Source: an uncultured Planctomycetota bacterium (GTDB lineage Bacteria > Planctomycetota > Planctomycetia > Isosphaerales > Isosphaeraceae). Taken from it: DNA of 64,000 nucleotides. Shown one piece after another: positions 28,150 through 52,813 of the stretch. Location of the stretch: the NCBI GenBank assembly GCA_963737655.1, contig CAVTTN010000002.1, positions 1,824,001 to 1,888,000 of the forward strand. The letters are read 5' to 3'. The position numbers and the translations under genes were made by a program. The notes beneath the pieces are model-generated. The model saw only the letters and a list, made by a program, of their open reading frames with translations. It had not been told where the DNA came from and did no database searches. Positions within the stretch are counted from its first letter, which is position 1. Each line of letters starts with the position of its first letter.

Positions 28150-29222
28150 ATGGACAGCGAGGGGAGGCCCGCGGTGACGGATTCTCGGCCCCTGGTGGCC
28201 CTCACGCTCGGGGACGTCGCCGGGATCGGGCCGGAGGTCGTCGCCCGGGCGTGGTCCGAGGCGTCGTTGCGGACGATCGCCCGTCCGTTCGTCGTCGGCC
28301 ATCCGGCGAGCCTGGAACAGGGCATCGCGATCGTCGGCGGGACGATCGAGGTCCGCGTGATCGACCGCCCGGAGGACGCCCGGCCCGACTCCCGGACGAT
28401 CCCCTGCCTCCTCGGCACCGATCAGGCCCTGGCGGGCCTGCCGCTCGGCAAGGTGGACGCTCGGGCCGGTCGCGCCGCCCATGATTTCCTGGTCTCGGCG
28501 ATCGACCTGGCCCTGGAGGGCCGGGTGGACGCGATCGTCACGCTCCCCTTGAACAAGGAATCGCTCCGGGCCGGTGGGGTGAGGCATCCCGGGCACACGG
28601 AGATCCTCGCCGAGCGGTGCGGCGTGTCGGATTTCGCGATGATGCTCTACCTCGGCCCGCCGACCGGGGGCGGGGACGCCGGGCTCGGCGTGGTCCACGC
28701 GACGCTCCATGTGCCCCTGCGAGACGTCTTCCGGCTCCTGACCATCGACCGGGTGGCCGAGACCATCGCCCTGGCCGATCGCGCCCTGAGGCCCCTGACC
28801 GGGGGGCGGGCCCGAGGGTCGCCGTGGCCGGATTGAACCCCCACGCCGGGGAGAACGGCCTGTTCGGCGACGAGGAGATCCGGGTGATCGGCCCGGCCGT
28901 CGAGAGGGCCCGGGCGATGGGGATCGACGTCGCCGGGCCGATCGCCGCCGACACCCTGTTCGTCCGCGCCGTCGGCGGCGAGTTCGACGCGGTGGTGGCG
29001 ATGTATCACGACCAGGGCCACGTGGCCCTGAAGACCCTGGGATTTGACCGCGCGGTGAACGTGACCCTCGGGCTGCCGATCGTCCGGACGAGCGTGGCCC
29101 ACGGCACGGCCTTCGACATCGCCGGCTCGGGCCGGGCCGAGACGTCCAGCCTGATCGAGGCGGTCCGCGTGGCCGCGAGGATCGTCGCCGGCCGTCGCTC
29201 GGAGGCCCTGACCCGATCATGA
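28150..29222 (+). CDS. pdxA: 4-hydroxythreonine-4-phosphate dehydrogenase PdxA family, apparent frameshift in G6 at 28801-28806
   Basis: [13 protein letters not shown], then in a second frame [30 protein letters not shown]. Confidence 0.92.
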
Positions 29223-33900: not shown

Positions 33901-35424
33901 GCCGAGGTCACCTACGAGACGGCCGTCGATGCCGCCTGGGCGACCCAGCAGATGTCCGACGCGACGGCCGACGGCGCCCTGGACAACGCCCAGGCCGCCG
34001 CCGACTTCGCCCAGACCGTGGCCGTGAGCGCCGCGGAGGCGGCGTTCGACTCCGCCCAGGCCGTGGCGCAAGCGGCGTTCGACTCGGGAGAGGCCGCCGC
34101 GTGGGCCGCCGAGACGACCGCCGAGGGGGTCGCCGGGGTCGCCTGGACGGCCGCCGCCGCCTCGGCCCAGGCCGCTCTCAAGAACGCCGTGGCCGCCGCC
34201 GAGGTCGCCCACACCGCGGCCCTGGTCTCCGCGGGCAAGGCCCAGGTCTCGGCGCTGGCCTCGGCCAATACCGCCTGGGCCCGGAGCGAGGCGTCGGCCG
34301 ATTCCGCCTTCAAGAGGACGATGGCCGACGCCGCCTCGCAGTGGGTCGCCGCCGGGGCCGCCGCCGCCAAGGACTGGGCCAAGGCGATCGCCGACGCCGC
34401 CAAGACCTGGTCCGACACCGTCTGGCCCGGCTGGGCCACCTACGTCGACGCCCAGGCCCACGCCGCCGCCGACTGGACCGATTCGGTCGTCCACGGTTAC
34501 GCCGATTATCAGAAGGGCGTCGCCGGGGCCGGCGTCACGTTCGTCCAGACCGTGGCCCCCGCGCAGGTCACCTACGCCACGGCGGTGGCCAACGCCGACA
34601 AGACGTTCAACATCGCCATGGCGAACATCACCGTCACGCGCACCGTGGCCGGCGCCGAGTTGAACGTGGCCCAGGTCGAGGCGCAAGACCCCTCGGCCTT
34701 CGCCTCGATCACCCCGACCGGAGGCGGGGGCGGCTGGTTCTCGGGGATCATGAGCTACCTCGGAGGGCTGGCCGGCGGCCTCCTGATCGGCGGGGCGATC
34801 GTCATCGGCCTGGCCGTCCTGGCCTGTTACATGCCGGTGGCCGCCGCCGTGGCGGGGATCGGTCTGCTGGTCGTCCTCGGCGCCAACATCGTGGCCGGGG
34901 CGATGGAGCGCTACGCCGACGGCCAGGGCCTCGGGAGCTCGGTCTTCGGCTCGGTGGCCGACAACACCGGGATCGGCGGGGCGTATGCCGCCGCGACCGG
35001 CCGGGACATCGCCACCGGACAGGACCTGGGCCTCAGCAGCGACCAGCGGGCGGCCCTGGGCGGCCAGGCCACGGCCGACCTCATCCTGGCCCTCTTCGGC
35101 GGCCGGTTCAAGTTCTGCTTCGTCGCCGGGACTCAGGTGCTCATGGGCGAGGACGACGGCTCGCTCGCCTCGACGACCGAAGACGCCGCCGCGCCCCCGA
35201 TCGACGAGGACGCGACCGACCCCGAGGTCATCGTCCTGAGCCTCGCCGGCCTGTCCCTGGCGTATGGGGCCTATCGGTGGTCCCGGGCCCGGCGTCAGGC
35301 CGAGCGCCGCCGCCGCCTCCGGGCGATCGACGCCGCTCTGAACGACGAGGATTCCCTCGACGACGAGTTCTCGTTCGAGGAGGCCGAGGACGAGCGGTTC
35401 GTCCCGGAACTCCAGGTCGCCTGA
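30952..35424 (+). CDS. Giant Ala-rich polymorphic-toxin carrier: Planctomycete LExR export motif, hendecad helical stalk, hydrophobic pre-toxin segment, Hint N-fragment (CFVAGTQVL), C-terminal TM anchor
   Basis: RRRAKKLMFEVLEGRVML; 11-residue AYxAAxxAAxA periodicity; GGLAGGLLIGG hydrophobic hairpin; CFVAGTQVLMG at 35116; TM VIVLSLAGLSLAYGAY followed by an Arg cluster. Confidence 0.85.
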   Translation: MTAMSPPQANSRQTPADPSTGPRRREAARRRAKKLMFEVLEGRVMLDGDLASAQQAYNQAMTQAASDEQAANDARNAAVAAAQTALDGVTQQANAAWSASEADAWSTYQSVVSAADSTYWSAVNPAWSAYQDVLNNAQTAYNAAASAADGKQSAANASAEADYQQAQTDAQATYDAAVASADSTYNDASAAAQAAFAVASAAADATRDQAEATAQATSDAAVAAANTVYQAASDGAFASYQATVAALQATMDGAIAALGVTRDAAVAAAGSAHSATMATAQAAHDSAVATAQAGFDAAQTAAGTARDSANAAAEATYNDALAQAANQYAAGAQDQGQTAPLNLDADPGYQNAVNAAAAAYNAAVAASDATYNAAIDAASSVYNAATAAADAANQAASDAAEAAYQSASDAAQAAYNSASQAAQAAHDSQYVAAESAYAAQAQAAQNAYTAAVAQADSAYDAASASAQATHDSAYQAANDAYNNALQAHQATYNAAVAAADATQSAAYQAAQSTYDAAVQAASDAYDSAAQSADDAYNSAVQADTDATNAQIQGYLDSLNGTVQSADAARTVSLNAAAATYSSASQAANNAYNDAVAGFNQTRSDADNAASQAYSNTMKGANDALNNAQNAFYQAMSNIEMAQMQWYYSHPNGGTPPDYSAQMQAATDAFNAAKKQYAVTEAQAEVTLAQATGADAVAFVTSEQGAAVTRITALANAGKDQAIAGAQANKTYVDAVAPAVADFRAQQAHANADLTQEVADQRVDLAQAIASALKTFRNTTADAAETQANANAAADKAWTLSEASAMEAMNNADAASAETLANAQADADGALDNALAQADAAWVASEASAATTLENAQAQADLTRTTAEANADAALTTAQSNAGAAEVAALATAGVAWSTAQASADRAWVASVVSANTAFASSAIAAAVASASAETNAWAAEQNAEASAVVASASAWAGAQGTHYAGYLLAQIHAWAAGVSAQVAAEVTYETAVDAAWATQQMSDATADGALDNAQAAADFAQTVAVSAAEAAFDSAQAVAQAAFDSGEAAAWAAETTAEGVAGVAWTAAAASAQAALKNAVAAAEVAHTAALVSAGKAQVSALASANTAWARSEASADSAFKRTMADAASQWVAAGAAAAKDWAKAIADAAKTWSDTVWPGWATYVDAQAHAAADWTDSVVHGYADYQKGVAGAGVTFVQTVAPAQVTYATAVANADKTFNIAMANITVTRTVAGAELNVAQVEAQDPSAFASITPTGGGGGWFSGIMSYLGGLAGGLLIGGAIVIGLAVLACYMPVAAAVAGIGLLVVLGANIVAGAMERYADGQGLGSSVFGSVADNTGIGGAYAAATGRDIATGQDLGLSSDQRAALGGQATADLILALFGGRFKFCFVAGTQVLMGEDDGSLASTTEDAAAPPIDEDATDPEVIVLSLAGLSLAYGAYRWSRARRQAERRRRLRAIDAALNDEDSLDDEFSFEEAEDERFVPELQVA

Positions 35425-35531
35425 GACCCCCGACCTCGAAGGGCCGGCGCCGGAATTCCCGGCGTCGGCCCGCCCCGAGGCCGAGCCCGGCCCCGGACCG
35501 GAACTCCCCCCAAACCGCCGAGGAACCGACC

Positions 35532-36434
35532 ATGAACCGAACCGAAACGGCCCCGAAAGGGCCCCGATTCTGGACGGCCTGGACCCTCTCCTGGGCCGCC
35601 GTCTTCGGCCTGGCCCTCGCCCACCTCGCCTGGCGACACGGCGACAGGACGGCCGACCGCCCGGCCCTCGCCCGGCTCTCCTCGCCCGTCCCGACCCCTT
35701 CGAAAAAGACCAAATCCATCGAAACCATCGCGCCGGGCGATCGCGTCCTGGCCCGCAACGACGTGACCGGCGAAGTGGCGCCCCGACGGGTCGCCCAGGT
35801 CTTCCGCAACACGGCCGACCACCTGAGGACGGTCCGCATCCGCTCCGATTCCGGCACCGTTCAGGAGCTGAAGACGACCGACGACCACCCGTTCTTCGTC
35901 GTGGGCCGGGGCTGGGTCCTGGCCAGGTCGCTGGAACCCGGAAACAAGGTCCTTCAGCCCGACGGCCGCGAGGCGGAGGTCGATTCGACGTCGCGAGAGG
36001 CGCATCCGGAGGGCGTCGCCGTCTTCAACTTCGAGGTCGCCGAGTTCCACACCTATTTCGTGGCCGAGACGGCCAACGATCCGTTCGTCCTCGTCCACAA
36101 CGACTGCGTGGCCCGCGCCGAGGCCGCCGCCGCCCGTCACGGCGGAACACGGATGCCCGGGACCGACAACTGGAGCTTCCCGACCCGAAGGGCGGCCCGG
36201 CAAGCGGCGTCGGAGATCGCCGGCAACCTCGGCTCCGATCCCGTCCCGATCCGCATGAGGGACTTCCGGGGCAAGCCTCCCGGGTTCAACCCCAACTCGG
36301 AGATGGTCCACGGCCAGAAGAGCGCCGACGGCTCGATCCTCTGGCGGGACGACTTCCTCGGCCATCCCCGGTTCGGCGCCGGGCCTCACGTGAACGTGGA
36401 GATCGACGGGCACAACTTCCACCTGTTCTACTGA
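35532..36434 (+). CDS. Cassette 1: N-terminal TM + Hint C-fragment + His-rich nuclease/RNase-type toxin
   Basis: GAGGAA RBS; TM FWTAWTLSWAAVFGLALAHLAW; KSIETIAPGDRV...TTDDHPFFV..GW..FNFEV..HTYFV..VLVHN; toxin RRAARQAA..WRDD..GH..GPHVNV..HLFY. Confidence 0.88.
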   Translation: MNRTETAPKGPRFWTAWTLSWAAVFGLALAHLAWRHGDRTADRPALARLSSPVPTPSKKTKSIETIAPGDRVLARNDVTGEVAPRRVAQVFRNTADHLRTVRIRSDSGTVQELKTTDDHPFFVVGRGWVLARSLEPGNKVLQPDGREAEVDSTSREAHPEGVAVFNFEVAEFHTYFVAETANDPFVLVHNDCVARAEAAAARHGGTRMPGTDNWSFPTRRAARQAASEIAGNLGSDPVPIRMRDFRGKPPGFNPNSEMVHGQKSADGSILWRDDFLGHPRFGAGPHVNVEIDGHNFHLFY

Positions 36435-36512
36435 GGCGAAGCGGGCGAGGCCGGGGGCCCGACACTCGGCTCCTGGCCCGCCGGATTCGATCCGGATCGG
36501 GGAGGTTCGGTC

Positions 36513-36887
36513 GTGAAGGCATTCTGGCGGTACGACTGCGACTTCGGCCATCACTGGACCTTCTACCGAGACCTCGACGCCCCGGAGAGGCCCGAGGACA
36601 CGGTCTGTCCGTTCGGCCACGAGGCCGTGACACGGACCCGAGAGCCGGTGGTCGATCGGGTCGAGATCGCGTTCCGTCCCGGGGCGCGGGTGGTCGATTC
36701 GGTCAAGGGTCAGATCGGCCACGAATACGATTTCCACCTCGTCCTGACCGATCCGAGGACCGGCGAAACGAGGATGTCGCTCCGGCCCGTCCCCTGGACC
36801 GAGGCCCTGAGACACGCCCAGGCCCTGTACGATCGCGGCTTGACCCGCGATCGCTCGTGGGCCTACTTCGACAAGCACCTGTCCTGA
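36513..36887 (+). CDS. Candidate immunity protein for cassette 1
   Basis: 124 aa directly after the toxin; GGAGG RBS; C-x3-H and C-x3-H motifs. Confidence 0.65.
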   Translation: MKAFWRYDCDFGHHWTFYRDLDAPERPEDTVCPFGHEAVTRTREPVVDRVEIAFRPGARVVDSVKGQIGHEYDFHLVLTDPRTGETRMSLRPVPWTEALRHAQALYDRGLTRDRSWAYFDKHLS

Positions 36888-36962
36888 GCGGGCCGGTCCG
36901 CCCGGCCGATCCACCTCACCCCCCATCGCTCGGGCGTGTCTCCGCCCGAGGAGGAGGTCTTC

Positions 36963-37912
36963 ATGATCGGTGAGATTCCGCGAGACGACCCCGCGAACGA
37001 TCCCCGGCCCGCGCGATCGGCCCGGTTCTGGGCCCTCTGGACGATGGCCTCGGCGACCGTGGTCCTTGGGGTCATGGCGACGAGGGGGGCTTCCCCTCCG
37101 AAGCCCGAGAGGCCCGCCGGACCGGTCTGGCGGCCGATCTCCGTCACGGCCGAGCCCGCCCGGCGCTCGAGGTCGATCGAAGAGGTGAAGGTCGGCGACC
37201 TGGTGATGAGCCGGGACGACGCGACCGGCGCCGTGGTCCCGAAGCGGGTCGTTCGCCTGTTCCGCAACACCTCGGACCACCTCCGGCTGGTCCGGGTCCG
37301 GGCCGGGTCCGGCGCCGAGCAGACGATCGAGACGACCGACGACCACCCGTTCTTCGTCGTCGGCCACGGCTGGTCGGCGGCCAGGGACCTTGTTCCCGGA
37401 GACCGCCTGACCCAGCCCGACGGCGAGATGGCCGAGGTCGCCGCGACCGAGAGGCGGGATCATCCCGAGGGCGTCCCGGTCTTCAACTTCGAGGTCGAAG
37501 GGACGCACAATTACTTCGTGGCGCGATCGCCCGACGATGCGTTCGTCCTCGCCCATAACGAGTGCATCCGGGTCAAGCCGGGCCGGCAGGCCCCGGGCCA
37601 CGAGTTCCGGATCAGCCCCGATGAGCTGAATTTCGTCAAGAACTTGCTCGCGAGGAACCGCAAGCCCAACCTGGAGGTCTATCGGACGAACCAGACCGAG
37701 AGGATGGGCGACTTCATCGTGATCGATCGTTCCAATCCCAGCAAACCCGTCGGCTGGGTCGTGGACGTGAAGATGGGCGGAGGGGCGCGGGCAACCAGCT
37801 GGAGAACGCCGCGAGGGCCAAGCAGATGTTCGGCCTCGACCAGCTCAAGACGGCCTCGGGGACCGCCGCCGACCTGATCCGCCAGCTCGGGATCGGCCGG
37901 GGGCAATGGTGA
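36963..37912 (+). CDS. Cassette 2: N-terminal TM + Hint C-fragment + PD-(D/E)xK-like nuclease toxin, apparent frameshift at 37782-37785
   Basis: GAGGAGG RBS; TM FWALWTMASATVVLGVMA; RSIEEVKVGDLV...TTDDHPFFV...VLAHN; toxin GDFIVID...VVDVK; adding one G gives AGNQLENA...W* ending at 37912. Confidence 0.85.
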
Positions 37913-37916
37913 CGCG

Positions 37917-39071
37917 ATGACCGGAGATTCGACGCGATGGCGGATCGCCGACGGAGGGCCGGCGATCCCCGAACCTTCCTCCGAGGAGGTGGCCCGGATG
38001 CTCGGGTCGGCCGAGGCCCGGCCTTCGGGCGATCGGCCCTGGGCGATCGTCCGCTCTCCGGACGACGCACCCCGTCTCCTCGCCCGCGACGACGCCGATC
38101 GGTTCGTGGCCGGGTTCTGGTCCGCGTCCGGTCGGCTCTTCCTCGCGGCCTCGCCGATCGGCGGAGGGCCCGGGTCCGTTCTCAGCGAATGGGTCCCGGA
38201 CGGCTCGTGGCGACCGGCTCTCTCCCTGGCCGGGGAGGTCCTGGGAGTCGCCACCCCGCCGGGCGGCAAGGGACCGGCCGTCACGGTCCTCGAACCCGAT
38301 CGGAAGCGGCTGGCGCTGGTCGGCCTCGACGGCTTACCGATCGCGTCCATCTCGCTCGGGTCGCCGGCCCGGGAGAGGGCCTGGGCGGCCTCCGGGACGG
38401 CCGTTCGTTCGGAGGACGGCACGCTTGCGGTCTTCGACGCCGGGCTCGCCCCCCTTGGCACGCCGTTCCGGTTCCGCAAGAGACTTGATGAACTGGCCCT
38501 CGCGCCGGGGCCTGATCACGTCTTTGGGTTTGGTCGCGATCCGGGGGTCTGGTCGGTCGATCTCCCGGCAGGGGAGCCCTGGTCCGTCGGGCGCGAGGGC
38601 CTCGCCACCCGCGCCGTGATCCCTCTGGGCCTCGGAGGGGCCGTTTGCGGATGGGAAGATGGCGCGGTCACGCGGTTCGATGCGTCGTCGCGACAGGTCC
38701 TCTGGACGACCGAGGCCGAGCCCGGGTGCCAATCCCTGGTGATCGACGTGGCCATCGGGACCGGGCGGGTCGTCTCGGGCTCGTCCTCGGGAAAAGTCCG
38801 AGCCCTCGACCTCCTCGGCGGAGCGGGGCGCTGGGAGATCGACGTGGGGACGGGCACGGTCGAGCACGTCCTGATCCTGGGCGGATGGGTGATCGCGGCC
38901 GGGGCGAACGAAGTCCTCTCCGTCCTGGATCTGGCCTCGGGCGAGGCCCGGGCCCACCTCTTCGGCCACCGGCACCGGATCACCCACTTGACTCCTTCGG
39001 CCCTCGGATCCGGGTTCATCTCCGCCGACAAGACGGGCCGAATCCTCGCCTGGGACCTCGCCGGGGGATGA
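37917..39071 (+). CDS. WD40/PQQ-like beta-propeller protein, candidate immunity for cassette 2
   Basis: GHRHRITHL...SADKTGRILAWD and SGSSSGKVRALD repeats; starts 4 nt after the corrected toxin stop. Confidence 0.7.
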   Translation: MTGDSTRWRIADGGPAIPEPSSEEVARMLGSAEARPSGDRPWAIVRSPDDAPRLLARDDADRFVAGFWSASGRLFLAASPIGGGPGSVLSEWVPDGSWRPALSLAGEVLGVATPPGGKGPAVTVLEPDRKRLALVGLDGLPIASISLGSPARERAWAASGTAVRSEDGTLAVFDAGLAPLGTPFRFRKRLDELALAPGPDHVFGFGRDPGVWSVDLPAGEPWSVGREGLATRAVIPLGLGGAVCGWEDGAVTRFDASSRQVLWTTEAEPGCQSLVIDVAIGTGRVVSGSSSGKVRALDLLGGAGRWEIDVGTGTVEHVLILGGWVIAAGANEVLSVLDLASGEARAHLFGHRHRITHLTPSALGSGFISADKTGRILAWDLAGG

Positions 39072-39099
39072 CTCCTCCCGAGGGAATCCCCGGCCTCTT

Positions 39100-39663
39100 C
39101 TAGAATTCGATCCCGAGTTGCGCCTTCACCCCCGATTTGTACGGATGTTTCACCGCGACGATCTCCGAGACGAGGTCGGCGGCCTCGATGATCTCGGGAG
39201 GCGCGCCTCGGCCGGTCAGGACGACGTGTTGCCTCGGGTCTCGGGCCTGGAGGAACTCGACGACGAGCTTCGGGTCGAGGTAGCCGAGCTTCATCACGAC
39301 GTTGATCTCGTCGAGGATCACCACGTCATACTTCCCCGAGGCGATCGCCTCCTTGCTGACCTCCCAGATCGCCAGGGTGGTGGCGATGTCCTGCTCGGGG
39401 TTCTTGGTGTCCCAGGTGAAGCCGTCGCCCATGGGCAAGATCGTGATGTCGGGCGCGAGCCGATCGGCCATCTTCTTCTCGCCGGTCTTCCACTTCCCCT
39501 TGATGTACTGGACCATGAAGACCTTGAAGCCGACGCCCAGGGCGCGGAACGCCAGCCCGAGCGCGGCGGTCGTCTTCCCCTTGCCATCGCCGGTGTTCAC
39601 CAGGATCAGGCCCCTCCGCCTCTTGGGCTCCGGGGCGGGCGGCTCGTCGTTCAGTTCGGCCAT
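39100..39663 (-). CDS. cobO: Cob(I)yrinic acid a,c-diamide adenosyltransferase
   Basis: TGDGKGKTTAALG, GFTW, ILDE, VLTGR, KHPY..G..AQ.GIEF. Confidence 0.96.
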   Translation of the reverse strand: MAELNDEPPAPEPKRRRGLILVNTGDGKGKTTAALGLAFRALGVGFKVFMVQYIKGKWKTGEKKMADRLAPDITILPMGDGFTWDTKNPEQDIATTLAIWEVSKEAIASGKYDVVILDEINVVMKLGYLDPKLVVEFLQARDPRQHVVLTGRGAPPEIIEAADLVSEIVAVKHPYKSGVKAQLGIEF

Positions 39664-43540: not shown

Positions 43541-46500
43541 TCAGGATCGGGATTCGAGGGCCGCTTCGTTCTTCAGGTAGACTTCGCGGAGGCGATCGAG
43601 CGTCTCCGGGTCGGGGGCCTCCCACAGGCCGCGGTCGGCCGCTTCGAGGAGCCTCTCGGCCATCGCCCGGACGGCCCACGGGTTGGACTTCTCCATCGTG
43701 GCCCGGACTCCGGGATCGAGGAGATAGGATCGGCTCACGTGCTCGAACATCCAGTCGTCGATGACCCCGGCCGTCGCCTCGTAGCCGAACAGGTAATCGA
43801 CGGTGGCCGAGAGCTCCGAGGCCCCCTTGTAGCCGTGGGCGAGCGTCGAGGCGATCCACTTCGGGTTCACGACCCGGGAGCGGAACACCCGGTACGCCTC
43901 CTCGCGGAGGTCGCGGACCCGCACGTCGGCCGGGTTCGAGGTGTCGCCGAAATACGTCGCCGGATCGCCGCCGGCGAGGCTGCGGATCGCGGCGATCATC
44001 CCCCCGTGGTACTGGAAATAGTCGTCGGAATCGAAGATGTCGTGCTCGCGGTTGTCCTGGTTCTGGACGGCCACCGCGACCTGCGCGAGCCTCCTCTTGA
44101 AGGCGCCGGGTGCGGCCGTGCCGTGCTCGGAACGGGTGTAGGCGTAGGAACCCCAGGTGATGTACACGTCGGCCAGGTCGTGGGTCGTCTGCCAGTTGCG
44201 TTCGTCGATCAGGTTCAGGAGGCCGGCGCCGTAGGCCCCGGGCTTCGAGCCGAACACGCGGTAGAGCGCCGCCTCGCGGGTCGTCCCCGAGGCCCGTTCT
44301 CGGAGGACGTTGGCGCGGAGGTAGTTGGATCGTTCGTCCTCGTCGGCCTCGGCGACGAGTTCGACGGCGAGGTCGATCAGGGCCACGACGTTGGGGAAGG
44401 CGTCGCGGAAGAATCCCGAGATCCTGACCGTCACGTCGATCCTCGGGCGGCCCGAGTTCCTCCAGGGGGACGAGCTCGACGCCCGACACGCGGCGATTCT
44501 CGGGCGACCAGGCCGGCCGGCAGCCCATCAGGTGGAGGATTTCGGCGACGTCGTCGCCGTGGGTCCTCATGGTGGACGTCCCCCAGACGACGATGCCGAC
44601 GGTCCGGGGGAATCGGCCGTCGTGTTCCTCCCGGAACCGCTCGATCAGCCGCTCGCCGGCCTGGACGCCCACCCTCCAGGCCGCCTGGCTCGGGATCGTG
44701 TGGACATCGACCGAGTAGAAATTCCGGCCGGTGGGCAGGATGCGGGCCATCCCCCGGGTCGGGGCGCCGCTGGGCCCGGCGGGGACGAATTTGCCCTCCA
44801 GGCCGCGGAGGAGGTTGGCGACCTCGTCGGTCGTCCGGTCGAGCCGGGGCAGGAGGTCGCGGGCGACGAACCTCAGGCAGGCCGTGATCTCGGGGCTGCC
44901 CTGGAACAGGCCCAGCTCGCCGCGTCCGGCCTCCGACGTCGCCACTTCGGAGCCGATGAGCGATGCGGCGTGGAGATCCACGGCCCGCGAGACATCGCCC
45001 CACGTCGTCGTTCCCGCCGCGGGGCGGGCGGCTTCGGGGTTTCGGGCCTCGCGGAGGTCCTCCATCACCTGACCCCAGTCATGCGCCCACCGATCGGGGC
45101 CGCGAGTGATGAAGATACTCCTGAGGATCGGATTCGAGAGGACCTCCTCGACCGGCGACCCGAGCGGCCACTGGCTCGGGGGGGCCTCGATCCCCCACGC
45201 CCGGGCGATCGCGTCTCGCAGGGACGGCACGTCCCCGTTCGGCAATCGGAGCATCGCCCGGACGGTCTCGACCCGTTGCCGGCCCCTCGGCGGCTCGCCG
45301 AGCACATGAAGGCCGTCGCGGATCTGGGCGTCTCCTAATTCGCACAGATATCCATCGATTTCCTGCAAGAACGCATCGATCTTTTCTCCTTCGGGCCGTT
45401 CCGGGGGGCCGCACGCCCTGGGAGGGGCGCATCTCGGGCCGGTTTTTCGGTGCGAGTGCGTCGGGCCGCCCTGGGAGATCCCCCCGGGCTTGTAGACGAT
45501 CCCGACCGGCCCGCACGGCGATTCCACGTCCTTGTGGAGGTCGTTCTCGAGGTAGAGGCCCCAGATTTCCTCGAAGATCGCCGGCAGCTTGGTCGGGTCG
45601 AGCGACGCCATCCGGTAGTATTCGTCGATCAGGTGCTCCAGGCGGAGGAGGTCGTCGTACGTCTCGGCCCGGGTCATGGCCGGGATCATGTGATCGAGGA
45701 TCACGGCGCCGCTGCGTCGCTTCGCCTGCGTCCCCTCGCCGGGATTGTTGATGATGTAAGGATAAAAATTGGGCAGATCGCCGATCATGATCTCGGGAAA
45801 GCATTCGTCCGACGACGCCAGGGCCTTCCCCGGGAGCCATTCGAGGTTGCCGTGCTTGCCCATGTGGATCACCGCATGGGCGCCGAACTCGCGGGCGATC
45901 CAGCGGTAATAGGCGAGGTAATGGTGGGTCGGCGGCAGGTCGGGGCTGTGGTAGATCGCCATCGGGTCGGCGCCGAAGCCCCGAGGGGGCTGGATCCCGA
46001 CGAAGACATTGCCGAGGACCAGGCCCGGGATCGCCAGGCGATCGTCGATCCGCCCGACCGTCCCCAGGGGGACGCCCCAGCGGGCGACCATCGCCTTGCG
46101 GGTGGACGGGGGAAGCTCGTCGAACAGGGGGTCATAGGTCGGCAAGGTCACGTGGCCGACGGCCGACCGCCAACCCTCGTCGGCCTGGAACTCGTCGTCG
46201 AACGTGCAACCGTCGATCAGCCGATGCATCAGGGAATCGCCGTCGGGCGGGATGTCCTCGACGCGATATCCGGCGTTTTTCAGGGCCCTCAGGACGTTCA
46301 TGACCGACGCCGGGGTGTCCAGGCCCACGCCGTTGCCGATCCTCGCGTTCTTCGACGGATAATTGCCGAAGAGGATGGCGATCTTCTTCTCGGAGTTGGC
46401 CGTGCGGCGGAGGCGGGCGAAGCTCTCGACCAGGCGGGCGACGCGGTCGATCCGGTCGGCCTTCGGGACGTAGCGGCGGACCGCCGAGCCGAGGGCGGAG

Positions 46501-47495
46501 GGGCCGTCGTCGCTCTCCTTGAAGCTGATCGCCACGGTGCCGATCCGGCCGTCGAACTCGGGCAGGACGACGTTCATCGCGGCGTCGCGAGGGGTCAGGC
46601 CGGACTTCGACGCCCGCCATTCCGATTCGGTCGAGGTGCACAGGATCGCCTGCAAGACCGGGACGTCGAGGCGGGCGAAGAGGTCGAGGATCGGGCCCGA
46701 GGATTCGGTGTGGGTCTCGTCGCCGAGGGTCGCGGCGGTGAAGCTCAGGGTGCTGATCAGGACATCGACGCGGGATCGCCCGTCCTCGTCCATCAGGACG
46801 TCGCGGAAGACCGCCGGGACGCCTCCGGGGCCGTCCTTCAGGCTGTAGAGGAAGACGGGCAGGACGCGGTGGCCGGCCGATTCGAGGCGGACGATCAGGG
46901 CATCGATCGGCGCCACGTTCCCGCTCATCCAGTGGGACCGATAGAACAGGATTCCCGCGCACGGACGGCCGCGATCGGGGTTCTCGGCGAGCCACTCGGC
47001 CAGGGAGAGCGGCTCGGGCCGGCCGGGCTCATAAATGCCCTCGCGGGGCAGGGGGGCGGGCGGATCGAAGCCGAATCTCGTGCCGAGGAGCGAATCGCCG
47101 AGGCAAAGCAGGAGGTTCCGGGCGTTCTCGGCGCCCCCCTGGGCGAAATAGTCCAGGACCTGGCCGACGAGGGGCAGGGGGGCCCGGCAGAGGGCCGTGA
47201 GCTCGGGGTCGAGGGACATCTCGCCGGGCAGGGCGAGATAGGCGATCCGCCGTTCCCGGCACCCGTGGGCGAGCCTCTCGAACCCCTCGGCGAAATACGG
47301 CTTGCCGCCCAGGACGCGGACGACCAGGACGCTCGTCCCGGGCAAATCCTCGACGAGGAAGCGATCCAGGGCGCCCGGGGCCGCAAGGTCGTTGGGATTG
47401 CCGGCGCGGACGGGAGGGAAGCCCTCGGGCAGGCGGGGGAGGGCGGCGGCGAGGGCCTGGAGCTCGGTATCGGCCGTCGAGAGGATGCGGATCAC
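43541..47495 (-). CDS. cobN: Cobaltochelatase subunit CobN, apparent frameshift near 44451
   Basis: LSTADTEL, LPEFDGRI, GVGLDTP, HMGKHGNLEWLPGK, PTGRNFY, then (RID)VTVRISGFFRDAFP, RSRVVNPKWI, HGYKGA. Confidence 0.96.
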
Positions 47496-47699
47496 GGGCG
47501 CCTCGGCGGACCTTCGGGAACGGGCCCGGGAGGGTCGCGGCCGGGGACTGGGATGGGGACGCGCCGAGGACGGCCGATCGATCGCATCCGATCGTTGGCC
47601 GAAGGGGCGGTCCGCACGGTCCCCGGGTCGCCTTACCCTCGAAGGCGCCTCGGGTCGGGGCCGGGACCGAGTGATCGGCCTCGACCCCGGAACGTCCCG

Positions 47700-47870
47700 G
47701 CCCGGTCTTCTGGCTCGTGGGCCGTCGGCCTCCTCGGCCTTCCCGCCCGGGATCGGGCAGTGGCCAGACTTTCAGGAGGGGCCGTTCCCACTCACAGCGG
47801 CGGGGCCGCGCCGGCTTCGAACCGGCTTCCCGACGACCGGGACGTCGCGGAGAACGCCGACCATCATGGT
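47700..47870 (-). promoter_or_regulatory. Cobalamin (B12) riboswitch
   Basis: Minus strand reads GGGAAGCCGGTTCGAAGCCGGCGCGGCCCCGCCGCTGTGA...GCCACTG...GGGAAGG...GAGCCAGAAGACC, upstream of cobN. Confidence 0.93.
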
Positions 47871-47942
47871 TCCGAGGGGGCCGGAAGTCAATGGGAGGCG
47901 GTCCGACCGCCTCCCGAAGCCGATGGCCCGGACCGGCCCCGC

Positions 47943-49313
47943 TCAGAACCGGATGTTGAATTGCGCGAGGGCCTCCAGGTTGAACGGCCTCGGCCCGGTG
48001 ATGGGCTCGACGATCGCCATCGAGAAGAGGCTCCGGCGGCGGATCTGGAAATTCGCCCCGAACGTGAGGTCCACCCACGTGTACGAGCCGGCCGGGTCCT
48101 TGATGTTGTAGGCGTTGGCGTGGTTCAGGGGGACGTTGATGTGCGTCTCGAACGTCGGGGCGATGGCCGTGATGAACTGGTCGAGGTTCTCGGCGCGATA
48201 GACGTAATACCCGATGGCCAGGTCCTGATAGAAGATCGTCACGTCGTTGGGGTTCGTGGGGACGTCGATCGACGTGAAGCCCTGGAAGTAGGCGGAGCCC
48301 ATCGTGTAGAAGTAGCCGAGGAACGGCTGGAACGCGAAGTTGTGGGGCGAGCGGAGCCCTCGGGCGCCGGCGAAATTCCTCGGGCCCGTGGGCATGTTCA
48401 GCAGCAAGCCGGCGGAGAGCAGCCGCCCGGCGTCACGATCGGAATACAGGGCGTACTTGAAGATGGCGGCCAGGTCGCCGACCGAGGTGGACGTCCCCCC
48501 GAGGCCGGCGATCCGGCTGTTCAGCGAGAGGTTGTCGATCGGCATCCGCAGGCCGACCGACGCCCGGCCGTCCAGGACCGTCTTCTCCAGGCCGAGGCTG
48601 TAGCGATACGCCTTGAACTGGTTCAGCGGGGAATTGAGCTGCTGGTTGACCTTCTGATTCAGGTTGTCGAAATAATTGAAGGAGAAATAGATGCGATCCT
48701 GGGGCTGGGGGCTCTGGTTCTCGGCGATCTTGAAGCCTCGGACGCTGGGGATCACGGCGACGGTGGTCTTGCCGGCGGCGCCCGCGAGGTGGGGCGGGAT
48801 GCCCGGGACGCCCGGCTGGGGCAGGGCCGGGGGCGCGGGGACGCCCGGCGGCCTCGCCGCGTTGGGGATCGCCAGGAGCCTGGACAGGTTCGGCGCGTCG
48901 CCCAGCATCTGGAAATAGCCGCCGTTGCCGCCGGAGACCGCCCCGCCCAGCCCGGAAGACGCCGAAGGCGTCGAGAGGCCCGGCACCGCGCCGCCCCCGG
49001 CGGAGTTGCTCAGGTCGGGCGCTCCGCCGGCCCCGGCACCGGCTCCGGTCCCCGCACCGGCCCCGGCACCGGCGGCCCCGCCTCCGGCGTCGATCGATCC
49101 GGTGCCTTCCTGGCCTCCGAGGCCGCCCATGCCGCCTCCCGGCAAGGCCGGCGAACCCGGGGCCCCGTATCCTCCGGCCGTACCCGAGCCGCTCTGCGAT
49201 TGGGGGGTCGCCCTCGGCGCCGCCTGGGGGGATTGGGCCGGGGCCGCCGCTGCCCACGACAGCGTGGCCAGGCCGAGGGCCGCGGCCAGCGCGGACCGAT
49301 GTCGTCCATCCAT
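47943..49313 (-). CDS. Secreted protein with Gly-rich linker and probable outer-membrane beta-barrel
   Basis: Signal peptide; KIAENQSPQPQDRIY; amphipathic strands; terminal QFNIRF. Confidence 0.75.
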   Translation of the reverse strand: MDGRHRSALAAALGLATLSWAAAAPAQSPQAAPRATPQSQSGSGTAGGYGAPGSPALPGGGMGGLGGQEGTGSIDAGGGAAGAGAGAGTGAGAGAGGAPDLSNSAGGGAVPGLSTPSASSGLGGAVSGGNGGYFQMLGDAPNLSRLLAIPNAARPPGVPAPPALPQPGVPGIPPHLAGAAGKTTVAVIPSVRGFKIAENQSPQPQDRIYFSFNYFDNLNQKVNQQLNSPLNQFKAYRYSLGLEKTVLDGRASVGLRMPIDNLSLNSRIAGLGGTSTSVGDLAAIFKYALYSDRDAGRLLSAGLLLNMPTGPRNFAGARGLRSPHNFAFQPFLGYFYTMGSAYFQGFTSIDVPTNPNDVTIFYQDLAIGYYVYRAENLDQFITAIAPTFETHINVPLNHANAYNIKDPAGSYTWVDLTFGANFQIRRRSLFSMAIVEPITGPRPFNLEALAQFNIRF

Positions 49314-49493
49314 GGAACTAGGTCTCCTCCCCCCCATCCTCGGGGGAATGAACGGTTCTCGATCGGTGGGATCGATCGTCCTTACCCCAACTTATCGCCA
49401 GGATCGGCCCCATCGTTCGCCGGATTTCGATACGATGGGATGAACGAGCCGGGCGACCCGCGCGACCCGCACATCCTGCCACCGAGGCCCCCC

Positions 49494-52400
49494 ATGATCG
49501 CTCGATTCCGCGTCTCGATCCGTCCCGCGATCCTCGGCGCGGCGGCGCTGCTCGCCCTCCCGACGGCCGACGCCTGGGGACAGGCCCAGATCCGCGACTT
49601 CACCCGCCCGTTCGTCGTCCTCCACCCCGGAGGCCACAACGCCCCGGTCCGCTCGCTGGTCTTCACGCCCGAGGGGGACGGCCTGCTCTCGGCCGGGCTC
49701 GACAAGGTGATCGATCAGTGGTCGATCGAAGGGGGCCGGGCCCGGTTGGTCCGCACGCTCCGGCCGGCGTCGTGGCGGGGGATGGGCGGGGCGATCTATG
49801 CGATGGCCCTGTCGCCCCGGGCCGACGCCAAGGGCCGTCGGCTCCTGGCCGTCGGCGGTTACGGCGTGTCGAACAATCGCGGGGAGATCCATTTCCTCTG
49901 GTATCCCGGCTCGCCCGACTTCCCCAACGGCGAGACCCTGCCCGGACTCCCCTCGGGCGTGGCCTCCCGGCCCGATCTGCCCGGTCATACCGACACGGTG
50001 ACCGCCCTGGCCTTCACGCCCGACGGCCGCTTCCTCGCCTCCTCGGCCAACGACGGCCGGGTGATCCTCTGGGACATCGCGACCCGGGGGGCGACGATCC
50101 TTTCCGGCCCGGGACGGGCCGTCAACGCCCTGGCGATCCGGCCCGACGGCCGACGCCTGGCCTCCGGGAGCGAGGACGGGCTAGTCCGCCTCTGGGACCT
50201 CGATCGCCGGGCCCTGATCGCCCAGAAGACCCCGGCGCCGACCGAGAGCCGGCCGGGCGACCCCGCCGGGGATAGCGTCCTGACCCTCGCCTTCGCCCCG
50301 CCCCTGGGCGGCTCGATCGCCGTCGGCCGCGAGAACGGCCGGCTCGTCCGCTTCGACGGCGACCGCCTCGACGGCCCGGCGATCCTCAACGGCGAGGACG
50401 CGGGGAAAGGCCCGGTCGAGGCCCTCGCGTTCCGCCACGACGGCCGACTCCTCGCCGCGAGCGTCCTCAAGAAGCCCGCGCACGCCACCCGGCCCGACCC
50501 GGCCTGCGAGATCCAGTTCCGCTCCTATCCCGACGGCGCCCCTCAGCCTTCGGGCCTCTCCAGCGATGGCCTGGTCTATGCCCTGGCGTTCCGCGCCGAC
50601 GACGGCCTCTTCGCGTTCGCCGGAGGGGAGGACCAGTCGATCACCCTCCGCGACCTCAAGGCGCCCGATCGGCCGCTCTTGCGGCTCAAGGGGCAAGGCG
50701 GGAGCCTCCAGGCCGTCGGCTTCGCCGCCGATAATCGGACCATCGGCGTCTCCCGGACGATCGGCGGCGAGCTCATCGGCTACGACCTGGCCGACCGCCG
50801 CCTGAAGCCCGTCGAAAAGGCCGACCTCGCCCCGATCCCCACGACCGTCGACGGCTGGCGGGTCCAGCCGATCGACCCGTTCTCCCTGAGCGTGATCGAC
50901 CCGAACGGCAACGCCCGGACCCTGAAGCTGGACGAACAGAGGGACCGGCGATGGTGGGCCTGGACGTTCCTCCGGCCCCTTCCGGGGCACCACGGCGCGG
51001 CCCTGGCCGTGGCGTGCCAGGGGGGGATCGCCGTGTTCCGGCGTTCGGACCTCCTCCGGACCCGGACGTTCGCCGGCCACGAGGCGGACGTCCTGAGCCT
51101 CGCCCCCTCGCCCGACGGCCGATGGCTGCTCTCCGGCTCGGCCGACCAGACGGCCCGGCTCTGGTCCCTGGCCGGCTGCGACGCGCGACCCCCTCTCGGG
51201 GCGACCTTCCGCCGAGACCCCGCCGGCCGGTCGGTCGTCGCGACGGTCGCGAAACTCGGGTTCGCCGAGGCGATGGGATTGAAGGTCGGCGACGTGGTCG
51301 AGATCCTCGCCGTGAACGGCGTCCGCCGAGAGCCGATCGGCGACCTCGCCGCTCTGGATAACGAGGCGCCGGGCGTCCGCATCGAGTTCCAGGTCCGCCG
51401 GGGGGCCGAGGCGGTCCAGGTCGGCACGACCCGCCGCGATTCGCCCGCGCTGTCGCTGTTCGTGGGCGAGGATCGCGAGTGGGTGATCTGGATGCCGGAG
51501 GGGTATTACGACACCTCGGCCGCCGGCGACCGGGCCTATCTCGGCTGGCACCGCAACGGCCCCACCGCCGACTCCCCCACGGATCATTTCTCGGCCGAGA
51601 CGTTCGAGAAGGAATTCCGGAGGCCCGACATCCTCGCCCGGTTGTTCGCCACGGCCGATCCGGTCCAGGCGTTGGCCCTCCGCGCCAACCCGGCCGAAGA
51701 CCCTCCGGCGATCGTCCAGAGGCAGGGTCCGCCCCTGCTCCGGATCACCACGACGGCCCCTCGCCCGCCCGGTCGGCCGATCCTCACCCCCGCGAATTCG
51801 ATCGCCGTCCGGGCGCAGGTCGCCACGGAAGACCGGGTTCCCGTGCAATCGGTCACGGTGAAGGTGGACGGCCGCTCGGTCGGCCCTCCCCTGGTGTTCA
51901 ACCCGCCTCGCCCCCTGGCCGATCAGCCGATCGAGGTGCCGTTGCATTCCGGGATGCAGAAGGTGACGGTCGAGGCGGTGAACGTCGGCGGGAAGACGAG
52001 GACCGACGGGTTCGAGGTCGTCTCGACGGTCCCTCCGGGCAAGGCCCCGACCCTGCACATCCTGGCCATCGGGGCGTCGTCCCCATTCCAGGACAGGACG
52101 TTCCCGACCATCGCCCTGGCCGACGAGGACGCGAAGGACGTGGCCGGGTTCCTCGCCGCGCCCGGGGGGGCCTCGAAGTTCGAGTCGGTGGACGAGAAAC
52201 CGCCGATCGTCGGCGACGACCTGACCGTCAAGAACCTCCGGGACGCCTTCCGGAAGCTCGAGCGCGACGTGATCGACCCGGCCGACACGGTGTTGATCCT
52301 CCTCGAAACCCACGCGCTCTCCGGGGCCAAGACCCCGCAGGTCCTCACGGCCGACGCGGGCCCCGGGGCCGCCCCGACGGTCGCCGAGATCACCGATTCG

Positions 52401-52813
52401 CTCGGCAAGATCGCCGAGAAGGGATGCCGGGTGATGGTCCTCCTGGACACCGCCCACGAGGGCGCGCCGAAAGATTGCCTCCTCGGGGTGGCCGAATGGG
52501 CCGGGCCCTGACCCGTCGCGGGGTGATCGCCTTCGTCGCCTCGAACGAGGGGCCGAGCCGTCGCGCGATCACTTCTGGCCACGGCGCGTTCGCCCAGGCG
52601 ATCCTGGACAGCACCGACCCGAGAGGACGCTCCCGGACCTGGGTCGATCCCGACCGCCCGATGACCCTCGACGACTTCCGGGACGTCGTCCTCGGCCGGG
52701 TCTCCGAACTCACCGGGCGCAAGCAGTTCGCCGCGTGCTACCTGCCCGTGACCGTCTCGCCCCGAGTCCCCCTCTTCGAACCCAACCGCCCCGAGGCTTT
52801 GAGCTCGAAGTAG
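49494..52813 (+). CDS. Secreted WD40 + PDZ + caspase-like (C14, catalytic Cys lost) protein, apparent frameshift near 52500
   Basis: Signal peptide; GH..V..LAF.PDG repeats; GLKVGDVV..VNG; ILAIG, LETH, LLDTAH, HGAFAQAI. Confidence 0.85.

Follow-up and report, generated by a model that had tools for sequence, protein, structure and literature searches.

Polymorphic toxin systems with a PT-HINT domain combine a large carrier, a pre-toxin Hint domain, a variable toxin, an adjacent immunity gene and an array of further cassettes. In the part of PMC3482391 available, a change of toxin comes about through DNA recombination onto one gene, and the Hint is a single domain. On the usual view, DNA recombination that draws on silent cassettes is the sole way in which polymorphic toxins exchange their warheads. 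The orphan modules of CDI/Rhs loci are likewise toxin-immunity pairs that lie behind the main pair; in the accessible sections of PMC3150448, the CDI orphans are generally described as having neither a start nor a signal sequence. MafB-CT cassettes are a further case, in which mafB-CT sometimes carries an intact Hint, according to the accessible portion of PMC4524018.

Two kinds of relative bear on the chemistry. For type A BILs, the available part of PMC4031507 gives a thioester at Cys1, a cut after Asn and ligation via the freed amine, with cleavage products making up most of the output. Atypically split inteins such as PolB16 OarG are encoded by two genes, lie in conserved replication enzymes, use a +1 nucleophile and have one partner; their 15-residue N fragment is called the shortest (PMC10189870, as far as its accessible text extends).

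Here we describe a locus in a 64,000-nt stretch (the window) of an uncultured Planctomycetota genome of the Isosphaeraceae (GCA_963737655.1, contig CAVTTN010000002.1, positions 1,824,001 to 1,888,000). It shares with the PT-HINT systems the large carrier, the pre-toxin Hint, variable toxins, adjacent candidate immunity genes and the array of cassettes, and with the CDI/Rhs and MafB loci a cassette, cassette 2, downstream of the main toxin-immunity pair. Unlike the systems in the accessible part of PMC3482391, its Hint has a membrane hairpin inserted in it and is encoded in two parts by separate genes. The first strand (HintN) and one helix (TM1) end the carrier, and the second helix (TM2) and the remainder of the domain (HintC) open each toxin gene. 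The motifs of PT-HINT and type A BIL domains are present, with Cys1 on the carrier, but not in one contiguous domain. The layout is that of naturally split inteins, with N and C parts on separate genes and assembly predicted by modelling, except that +1 is Glu and not C/S/T. The short N fragment (~11-15 residues here) and the two genes recall the PolB16 OarG type, from which, going by the same portion of PMC10189870, the locus differs in having two anchored halves and, for a single N half, several C halves that bear different cargo. A full-text literature search, covering few subscription papers, found no description of a split or membrane-interrupted pre-toxin Hint, although the supplement of PMC3482391 may list such proteins. 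The window system is apparently an undescribed variant of polymorphic toxins.

The locus and its second cassette

Table 1. Features of the carrier and the two cassettes, in window coordinates.
Feature	Position	Strand	Description
Carrier gene, 1504 aa	30910..35424	+	LEPR-XLL-like start, Ala-rich stalk, weak PT-TG, HintN, acidic linker, TM1, basic run, stop
HintN, ~11 residues	35116..35148	+	First Hint strand with catalytic Cys1
TM1, carrier anchor	35212..35280	+	Weakly hydrophobic (KD 1.08); followed by Arg-rich run and D-x-x-L/F helix motif
Cassette 1	35532..36434	+	Start, TM2, HintC ending His-Asn, toxin domain without assigned family
Probable cassette 1 immunity gene, 124 aa	36513..36887	+	No family; role from position
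Cassette 2 RBS	36948-36957	+	GAGGAGGAGG, 5 nt before ATG at 36963
Cassette 2 TM2	37026..37082	+	Signal anchor or signal peptide; residues 22-40, mean Kyte-Doolittle 1.52
Cassette 2 HintC	37170..37559	+	Block B T-x-x-H 37332-37346; His-Asn 37554-37559
Cassette 2 toxin domain	37560..37912	+	Candidate restriction-endonuclease fold; one frame break in G run 37782-37785
Beta-propeller gene	37917..39071	+	4 nt after toxin stop; candidate immunity

The LEPR-XLL-like start of the carrier, which we take to serve export, scored 14 bits against a cut-off of 17, and the PT-TG match (E 0.007) was also below its cut-off. A word-index search with the carrier end gave no match among 7998 candidates. The short D-x-x-(L/F) helix after the basic run (window ~35330-35345) is conserved in 26 aligned carriers, in fused and many split forms, and may have the N-tail of TM2 or an export factor as its partner. 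The gap between carrier and cassette 1 contains a G+C-rich imperfect inverted repeat (35440-35470). Scans of 35250-39300, uninformative as they are, found no promoter-like site and no plus-strand terminator.

Behind the constant region the window has two unrelated tails, one in each cassette. The sequence-only reading had taken cassette 2 (36963-37912) to be independently translatable, with a strong ribosome binding site, an ATG and a transmembrane helix, and all three were confirmed: GAGGAGG 4-8 nt upstream of an ATG is rare on the main contig (217 of 130,271 ATGs, 0.17%), and basic residues precede the hydrophobic helix. It had further described a HintC homologous to that of cassette 1 but without the Hint start, which agrees with our comparison. 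Residues 70-199 cover positions 9-136 of the 137 in the PT-HINT profile (69.4 bits, cut-off 27.7), the first eight being absent, and the two cassette proteins are 49-51% identical over ~185 residues. The domain is followed by Glu at +1 and Cys at +2. Nor does a HintN lie between the cassettes, again as proposed; neither the HintN motif nor the HintN-TM profile was found in the six frames of 36401-37140, where the best score was 1.2 bits against 73.2 for the carrier control. Cassette 2 thus has the start and export signals that CDI orphans generally lack in the accessible sections of PMC3150448, and only the C-terminal part of a Hint, so the contrast with classical orphans was well drawn.

The same reading regarded the missing HintN as the best evidence for a split, and here we disagree. 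Cassettes behind fused heads also start near TM2 without a HintN, so its absence is no evidence for a split; HintN is missing from all eight distinct cassettes behind fused heads, as it must be by the definition of that class. By sequence comparison, the strongest evidence for the split is that from other genomes, not cassette 2.

A single-G frame break had been proposed in the toxin domain of cassette 2, and two results bear it out. GC3 switches to a second frame at the G run and holds there until the stop at 37912. An intact homolog in a complete genome (G550) aligns with both window frames (identities of 47% and 48%) without interruption at the position of the break. In G550 the toxin is attached to another Hint clade. 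This was the only one of 300 other genomes of the class with a homolog, and a word-index search with the first part of the toxin (2 candidates) returned only the query protein itself. Among orthologs of the proteins of genome G053, 10 of 82 are frameshifted in the window assembly, ~1 per 9.7 kb, although some may be true differences, and 8 of the 10 belong to the same class as the toxin break. Because the G550 homolog is intact and the assembly is rich in breaks of this class, the toxin break is likely to be an assembly error rather than a lesion. The accompanying proposal of a PD-(D/E)xK nuclease stands in part: the acidic-acidic-lysine-glutamine spacing is there, and all four E...D...(D/E)xK...Q residues are kept in the G550 protein, the sole homolog found, but neither profiles nor models confirmed the fold. 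Pfam gave no significant match, Atlas leads reached 0.85-0.88, all below 0.9 (Mrr_cat 0.88, 40% of members; Tox-REase-7 0.86), and a single-sequence model of the intact homolog had a pLDDT of 39. A restriction-endonuclease fold is a lead only.

Among 121 family genomes, the beta-propeller gene behind the toxin turned up in just one, that of the window, and the G550 toxin is followed by a different, 199-aa gene. At 28150-29222 of the window, a gene that is presumably pdxA-like is spread over two frames near a G run, a further sign of assembly errors.

Fused and split forms in other genomes

The domain is a Hint with a TM1-loop-TM2 hairpin inserted after strand 1, either fused or cut between the helices. 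Genome G052 encodes the same parts as the window in one 1625-residue frame: HintN, linker, TM1, loop, TM2, HintC and toxin. After deduplication, 138 HintC matches comprised 20 fused, 18 split and 15 canonical forms, 29 too near a contig end and 56 with no HintN nearby, the last an upper count since the classifier missed some fused heads (such as G215 L196). Another family was searched starting from HintN, and 11 of its 151 genomes had matches; in this HintN-side sample of 20 parsed loci, which leaves out L294 and L309, 15 were fused and 5, in five genomes, were split. Among 1.84 billion representatives, the best 150, a set that includes query rows and rests on gene calls, comprised 80 Met-helix-HintC proteins that lack HintN, 15 fused and 11 canonical forms, and 44 unclear ones. 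Named relatives are planctomycetes. Carriers of Rhs or LEPR-XLL type occur among the relatives, and arrays reach six cassettes; of 55 downstream cassettes, 54 have T-x-x-H and 50 have His-Asn.

From the window by itself one cannot tell whether carrier and cassette 1 are separate, because one lost base, of the commonest error class of this assembly, would fuse them. The fusing frame has no stop upstream, and throughout the 107-nt gap GC3 remains high. On that reading, an assembly error has produced the split in the window, the head would be fused like that of G052, and cassette 2 would be one more ordinary cassette behind it that by chance begins at an internal start. The frameshift rate given above is in its favour, as is the distance between HintN and HintC, 590 nt, equal to that in fused G052 (594 nt). 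Yet the error would have to fall within ~130 nt, for which we estimate a chance of roughly 1% at that rate, and the relatives speak against it. At least two changes would be needed to fuse 6 of the 18 splits (L050, L115, L116, L118, L281 and the doubtful L261), and L305 and L306 of the HintN-side sample are likewise unfusable by one change. Both window HintC domains group with L115, L116 and L118 (SH-aLRT 87, in a quick, weakly resolved tree with support of at least 95 on only 3 of 41 branches), and these nearest relatives are split by stops that no single change removes. The pre-Hint segment of the L115 carrier is closely similar to that of the window carrier, and L112 repeats the L115 junction in a second assembly. 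The carrier tail after HintN, 102 residues in the window, fits those of the nearest split relatives (104-118). The other 12 splits could be fused by one change; two of them (L064) have no starts and look like errors.

The genome of the window (7.6 Mb, three contigs, 87.7% completeness) holds two HintN-TM carriers, both split and at the same point, and three TM2-HintC genes. Its second split locus (contig C2, 6074034-6075455; L043, L293) has a Ser/Gly-rich carrier, with several frameshifts, that ends HintN-TM1 at an in-frame stop; behind it comes a GGAGG-ATG TM2-HintC gene whose Hint belongs to another clade and has a long beta insert. This in-frame stop too tells against an assembly error in the window.

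Start signals differ between the two forms. An ATG precedes TM2 in 14 of 17 split heads but also in 6 of 20 fused ones, the latter being what an internal start in a fused head would look like, and an SD-like word in 12 and 1, respectively (Fisher p 0.003 for starts against split, overstated since kin are not independent). Cassettes follow their heads: behind split heads five of six have ATG and four an SD-like word, behind fused heads two of eight and none, with duplicate rows L178, L247 and L276 removed. All of these counts took ATG only, leaving GTG uncounted. Since random errors would not bring starts, starts at the splits argue against an origin by error. They are not exclusive to split arrays: G913 has GTG starts too, and in the G215 array, behind a fused head, three cassettes have GGAG and GTG. 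A start does not prove use, because two of the four G215 cassettes contain stops or frameshifts, start-bearing ones among them.

Taken together, these comparisons support the split as a real, recurring architecture, and it is very probably real in the window; an assembly error there we regard as most improbable. Fused and split forms side by side offer a visible route from one gene to two.

Several loci add detail. In L197 (9274-10572), L272 and L039, an ATG stands just before TM2 in linker-bearing or fused frames, twice with an SD-like word, possibly an internal start preceding the split. L111 and L113 have near-identical cassettes, one with a long open linker and the other stopping before the start, a sequence difference that suggests a recent change between fused and split states. 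One complete genome has six fused HintN-TM1-TM2-HintC copies, one of them broken (G1059:C1:4632177-4688682). In G530 (contig C7, L251), a carrier frame of 2483 residues that lacks HintN stops immediately ahead of an AGGAG-ATG TM2-HintC gene, and a HintN-TM carrier end lies on another contig.

Predicted assembly of the Hint halves and the probable role of cassette 2

The best solved relative, by sequence (E 9e-28) and by fold, is the type A BIL CthBIL4 (PDB 2LWY). It shares with the window Hint Cys1, T-x-x-H, His-Asn and the lack of a +1 nucleophile, but 2LWY is contiguous and soluble whereas the window Hint is split in the genome and membrane-anchored. In a structure model of the fused G052 relative, HintN and HintC form one domain with the insert looped out, and the model overlays 2LWY with a Z-score of 23.4 and an rmsd of 1.2 Å over 138 residues. 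The carrier HintN and the HintC of cassette 2 gave a predicted docking score of 0.66 (best control 0.02), with interface residues 21-35 of chain 1, agreement between runs in at least 70% of contacts and a partner pLDDT of 48-49. Of the solved pairs, 51 of 78 came up to the mark, against 2 of 108 mismatched ones; the pass may stem from likeness to solved Hint domains.

In many lineages the gene is cut in the TM1-TM2 loop, giving a carrier that ends HintN-TM1 and warheads of the form TM2-HintC-toxin with their own starts, and a mechanism can be proposed from there. Net charge around TM2 is +2.4 before and +0.2 after the helix (n=84); charges around TM1 are not independent, as TM1 seeds were chosen for their basic run. 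With the basic side after TM1 and before TM2, HintN and HintC would both face outwards from the inner membrane. Anchored in this way, the halves could then meet in the membrane, where HintN would complete the Hint fold, and autoprocessing would excise the Hint together with both anchors. Carrier and toxin might be joined by the type A BIL route, that is, thioester at Cys1, Asn cyclisation and attack by the freed amine. This would yield an ordinary carrier-toxin chain, and one carrier could take either warhead. Type A BIL chemistry fits Glu at +1, because ligation there uses the freed amine, with cleavage dominating. At +1, C/S/T is found in only 17 of 80 standalone proteins, which, with the prevalence of cleavage products among type A BILs, weighs against the proposed mechanism; among split heads it is 4 of 18. 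We lean slightly towards ligation over cleavage without ligation. Cys at +2 to +4 was considered as a marker of split forms and rejected (11 of 18 split and 4 of 15 fused, yet 10 of 14 canonical).

For cassette 2 itself, the sequences point to a translatable warhead that is probably completed in trans by the carrier and then cut or spliced. A more specific version, in which any one of several anchored HintC-toxins expressed together can be trans-spliced to a single anchored carrier with an 11-residue HintN and the reaction frees the toxin from both anchors, is possible but on balance doubtful.

There are two other accounts of cassette 2. In one, the split is real but cassette 2 is a displaced former head or a recombination reserve, kept mainly for its immunity gene and perhaps decaying. 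A displaced unit would keep its start and helix by inheritance, because in a split system it is the whole gene. The toxin is broken in the assembly, as are two of the four G215 cassettes mentioned above, and lone cassettes adjoin transposases in complete genomes; a profile search found such cassettes, without any HintN-TM, in G662, G902 and G752. HintC DNA identity between head and cassette is 84-99% in six other split arrays, and recombination therefore still seems to operate; these identities fit a reserve and led us to reject the idea that split arrays no longer recombine. The window pair, however, is the least alike of 26 (69% identical, longest exact match 31 nt) and would probably make a poor donor, and start, helix, catalytic motifs and frame are intact save for one break of the assembly's usual error class. 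We consider this account unlikely, though it deserves real weight.

In the other, the TM2-HintC-toxin protein acts without a carrier; it would be a small toxin, exported or anchored, whose release depends either on HintC by itself or on some other protease. Single-gene forms are indeed common, as the 80 among the best 150 representatives attest, and some genomes have no carrier end by the HintN-TM profile. But in the models HintN is an integral strand of the Hint fold, 17 of 18 split loci have a HintN-TM carrier 434-688 nt ahead of the first cassette, and a toxin without a carrier would have no evident delivery route, so that we give carrier-free action very little credence.

If warheads are indeed completed in trans by the carrier, a split anchored Hint would let one large carrier be armed with several toxins at once, without DNA rearrangement, and would couple membrane release to processing. 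Trans-splicing to several warheads, if it takes place, would amount to a natural combinatorial split-BIL system, with toxin diversification after translation, and would supply very short N fragments that do not depend on a +1 nucleophile. Trans-splicing by a BIL was reportedly described by Aranko in 2013, with a split that is said to have been engineered. With the HintN/HintC pairs it could be tested whether pre-toxin Hint domains are capable of splicing or just of cleavage. The pairs are also candidate protein-ligation tools, with N fragments as short as or shorter than the 15 residues given in the accessible text of PMC10189870.

The genome of the window encodes other Hint proteins as well. 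On contig C2, proteins of ~600-700 residues with a canonical Hint and a short tail without toxin lie at 103036, 2439878, 2807568 and 4779755. Such proteins are common and occur in many family genomes; a His-Asp ending is seen in one of those encoded here and in some of the relatives' copies. At 1664151-1666211 of the same contig lies a Rhs-type protein whose Hint starts C-F-P-P and has a short hydrophilic insert. In the window, 45450-52511 encodes a 2353-residue protein with WD40 propellers.
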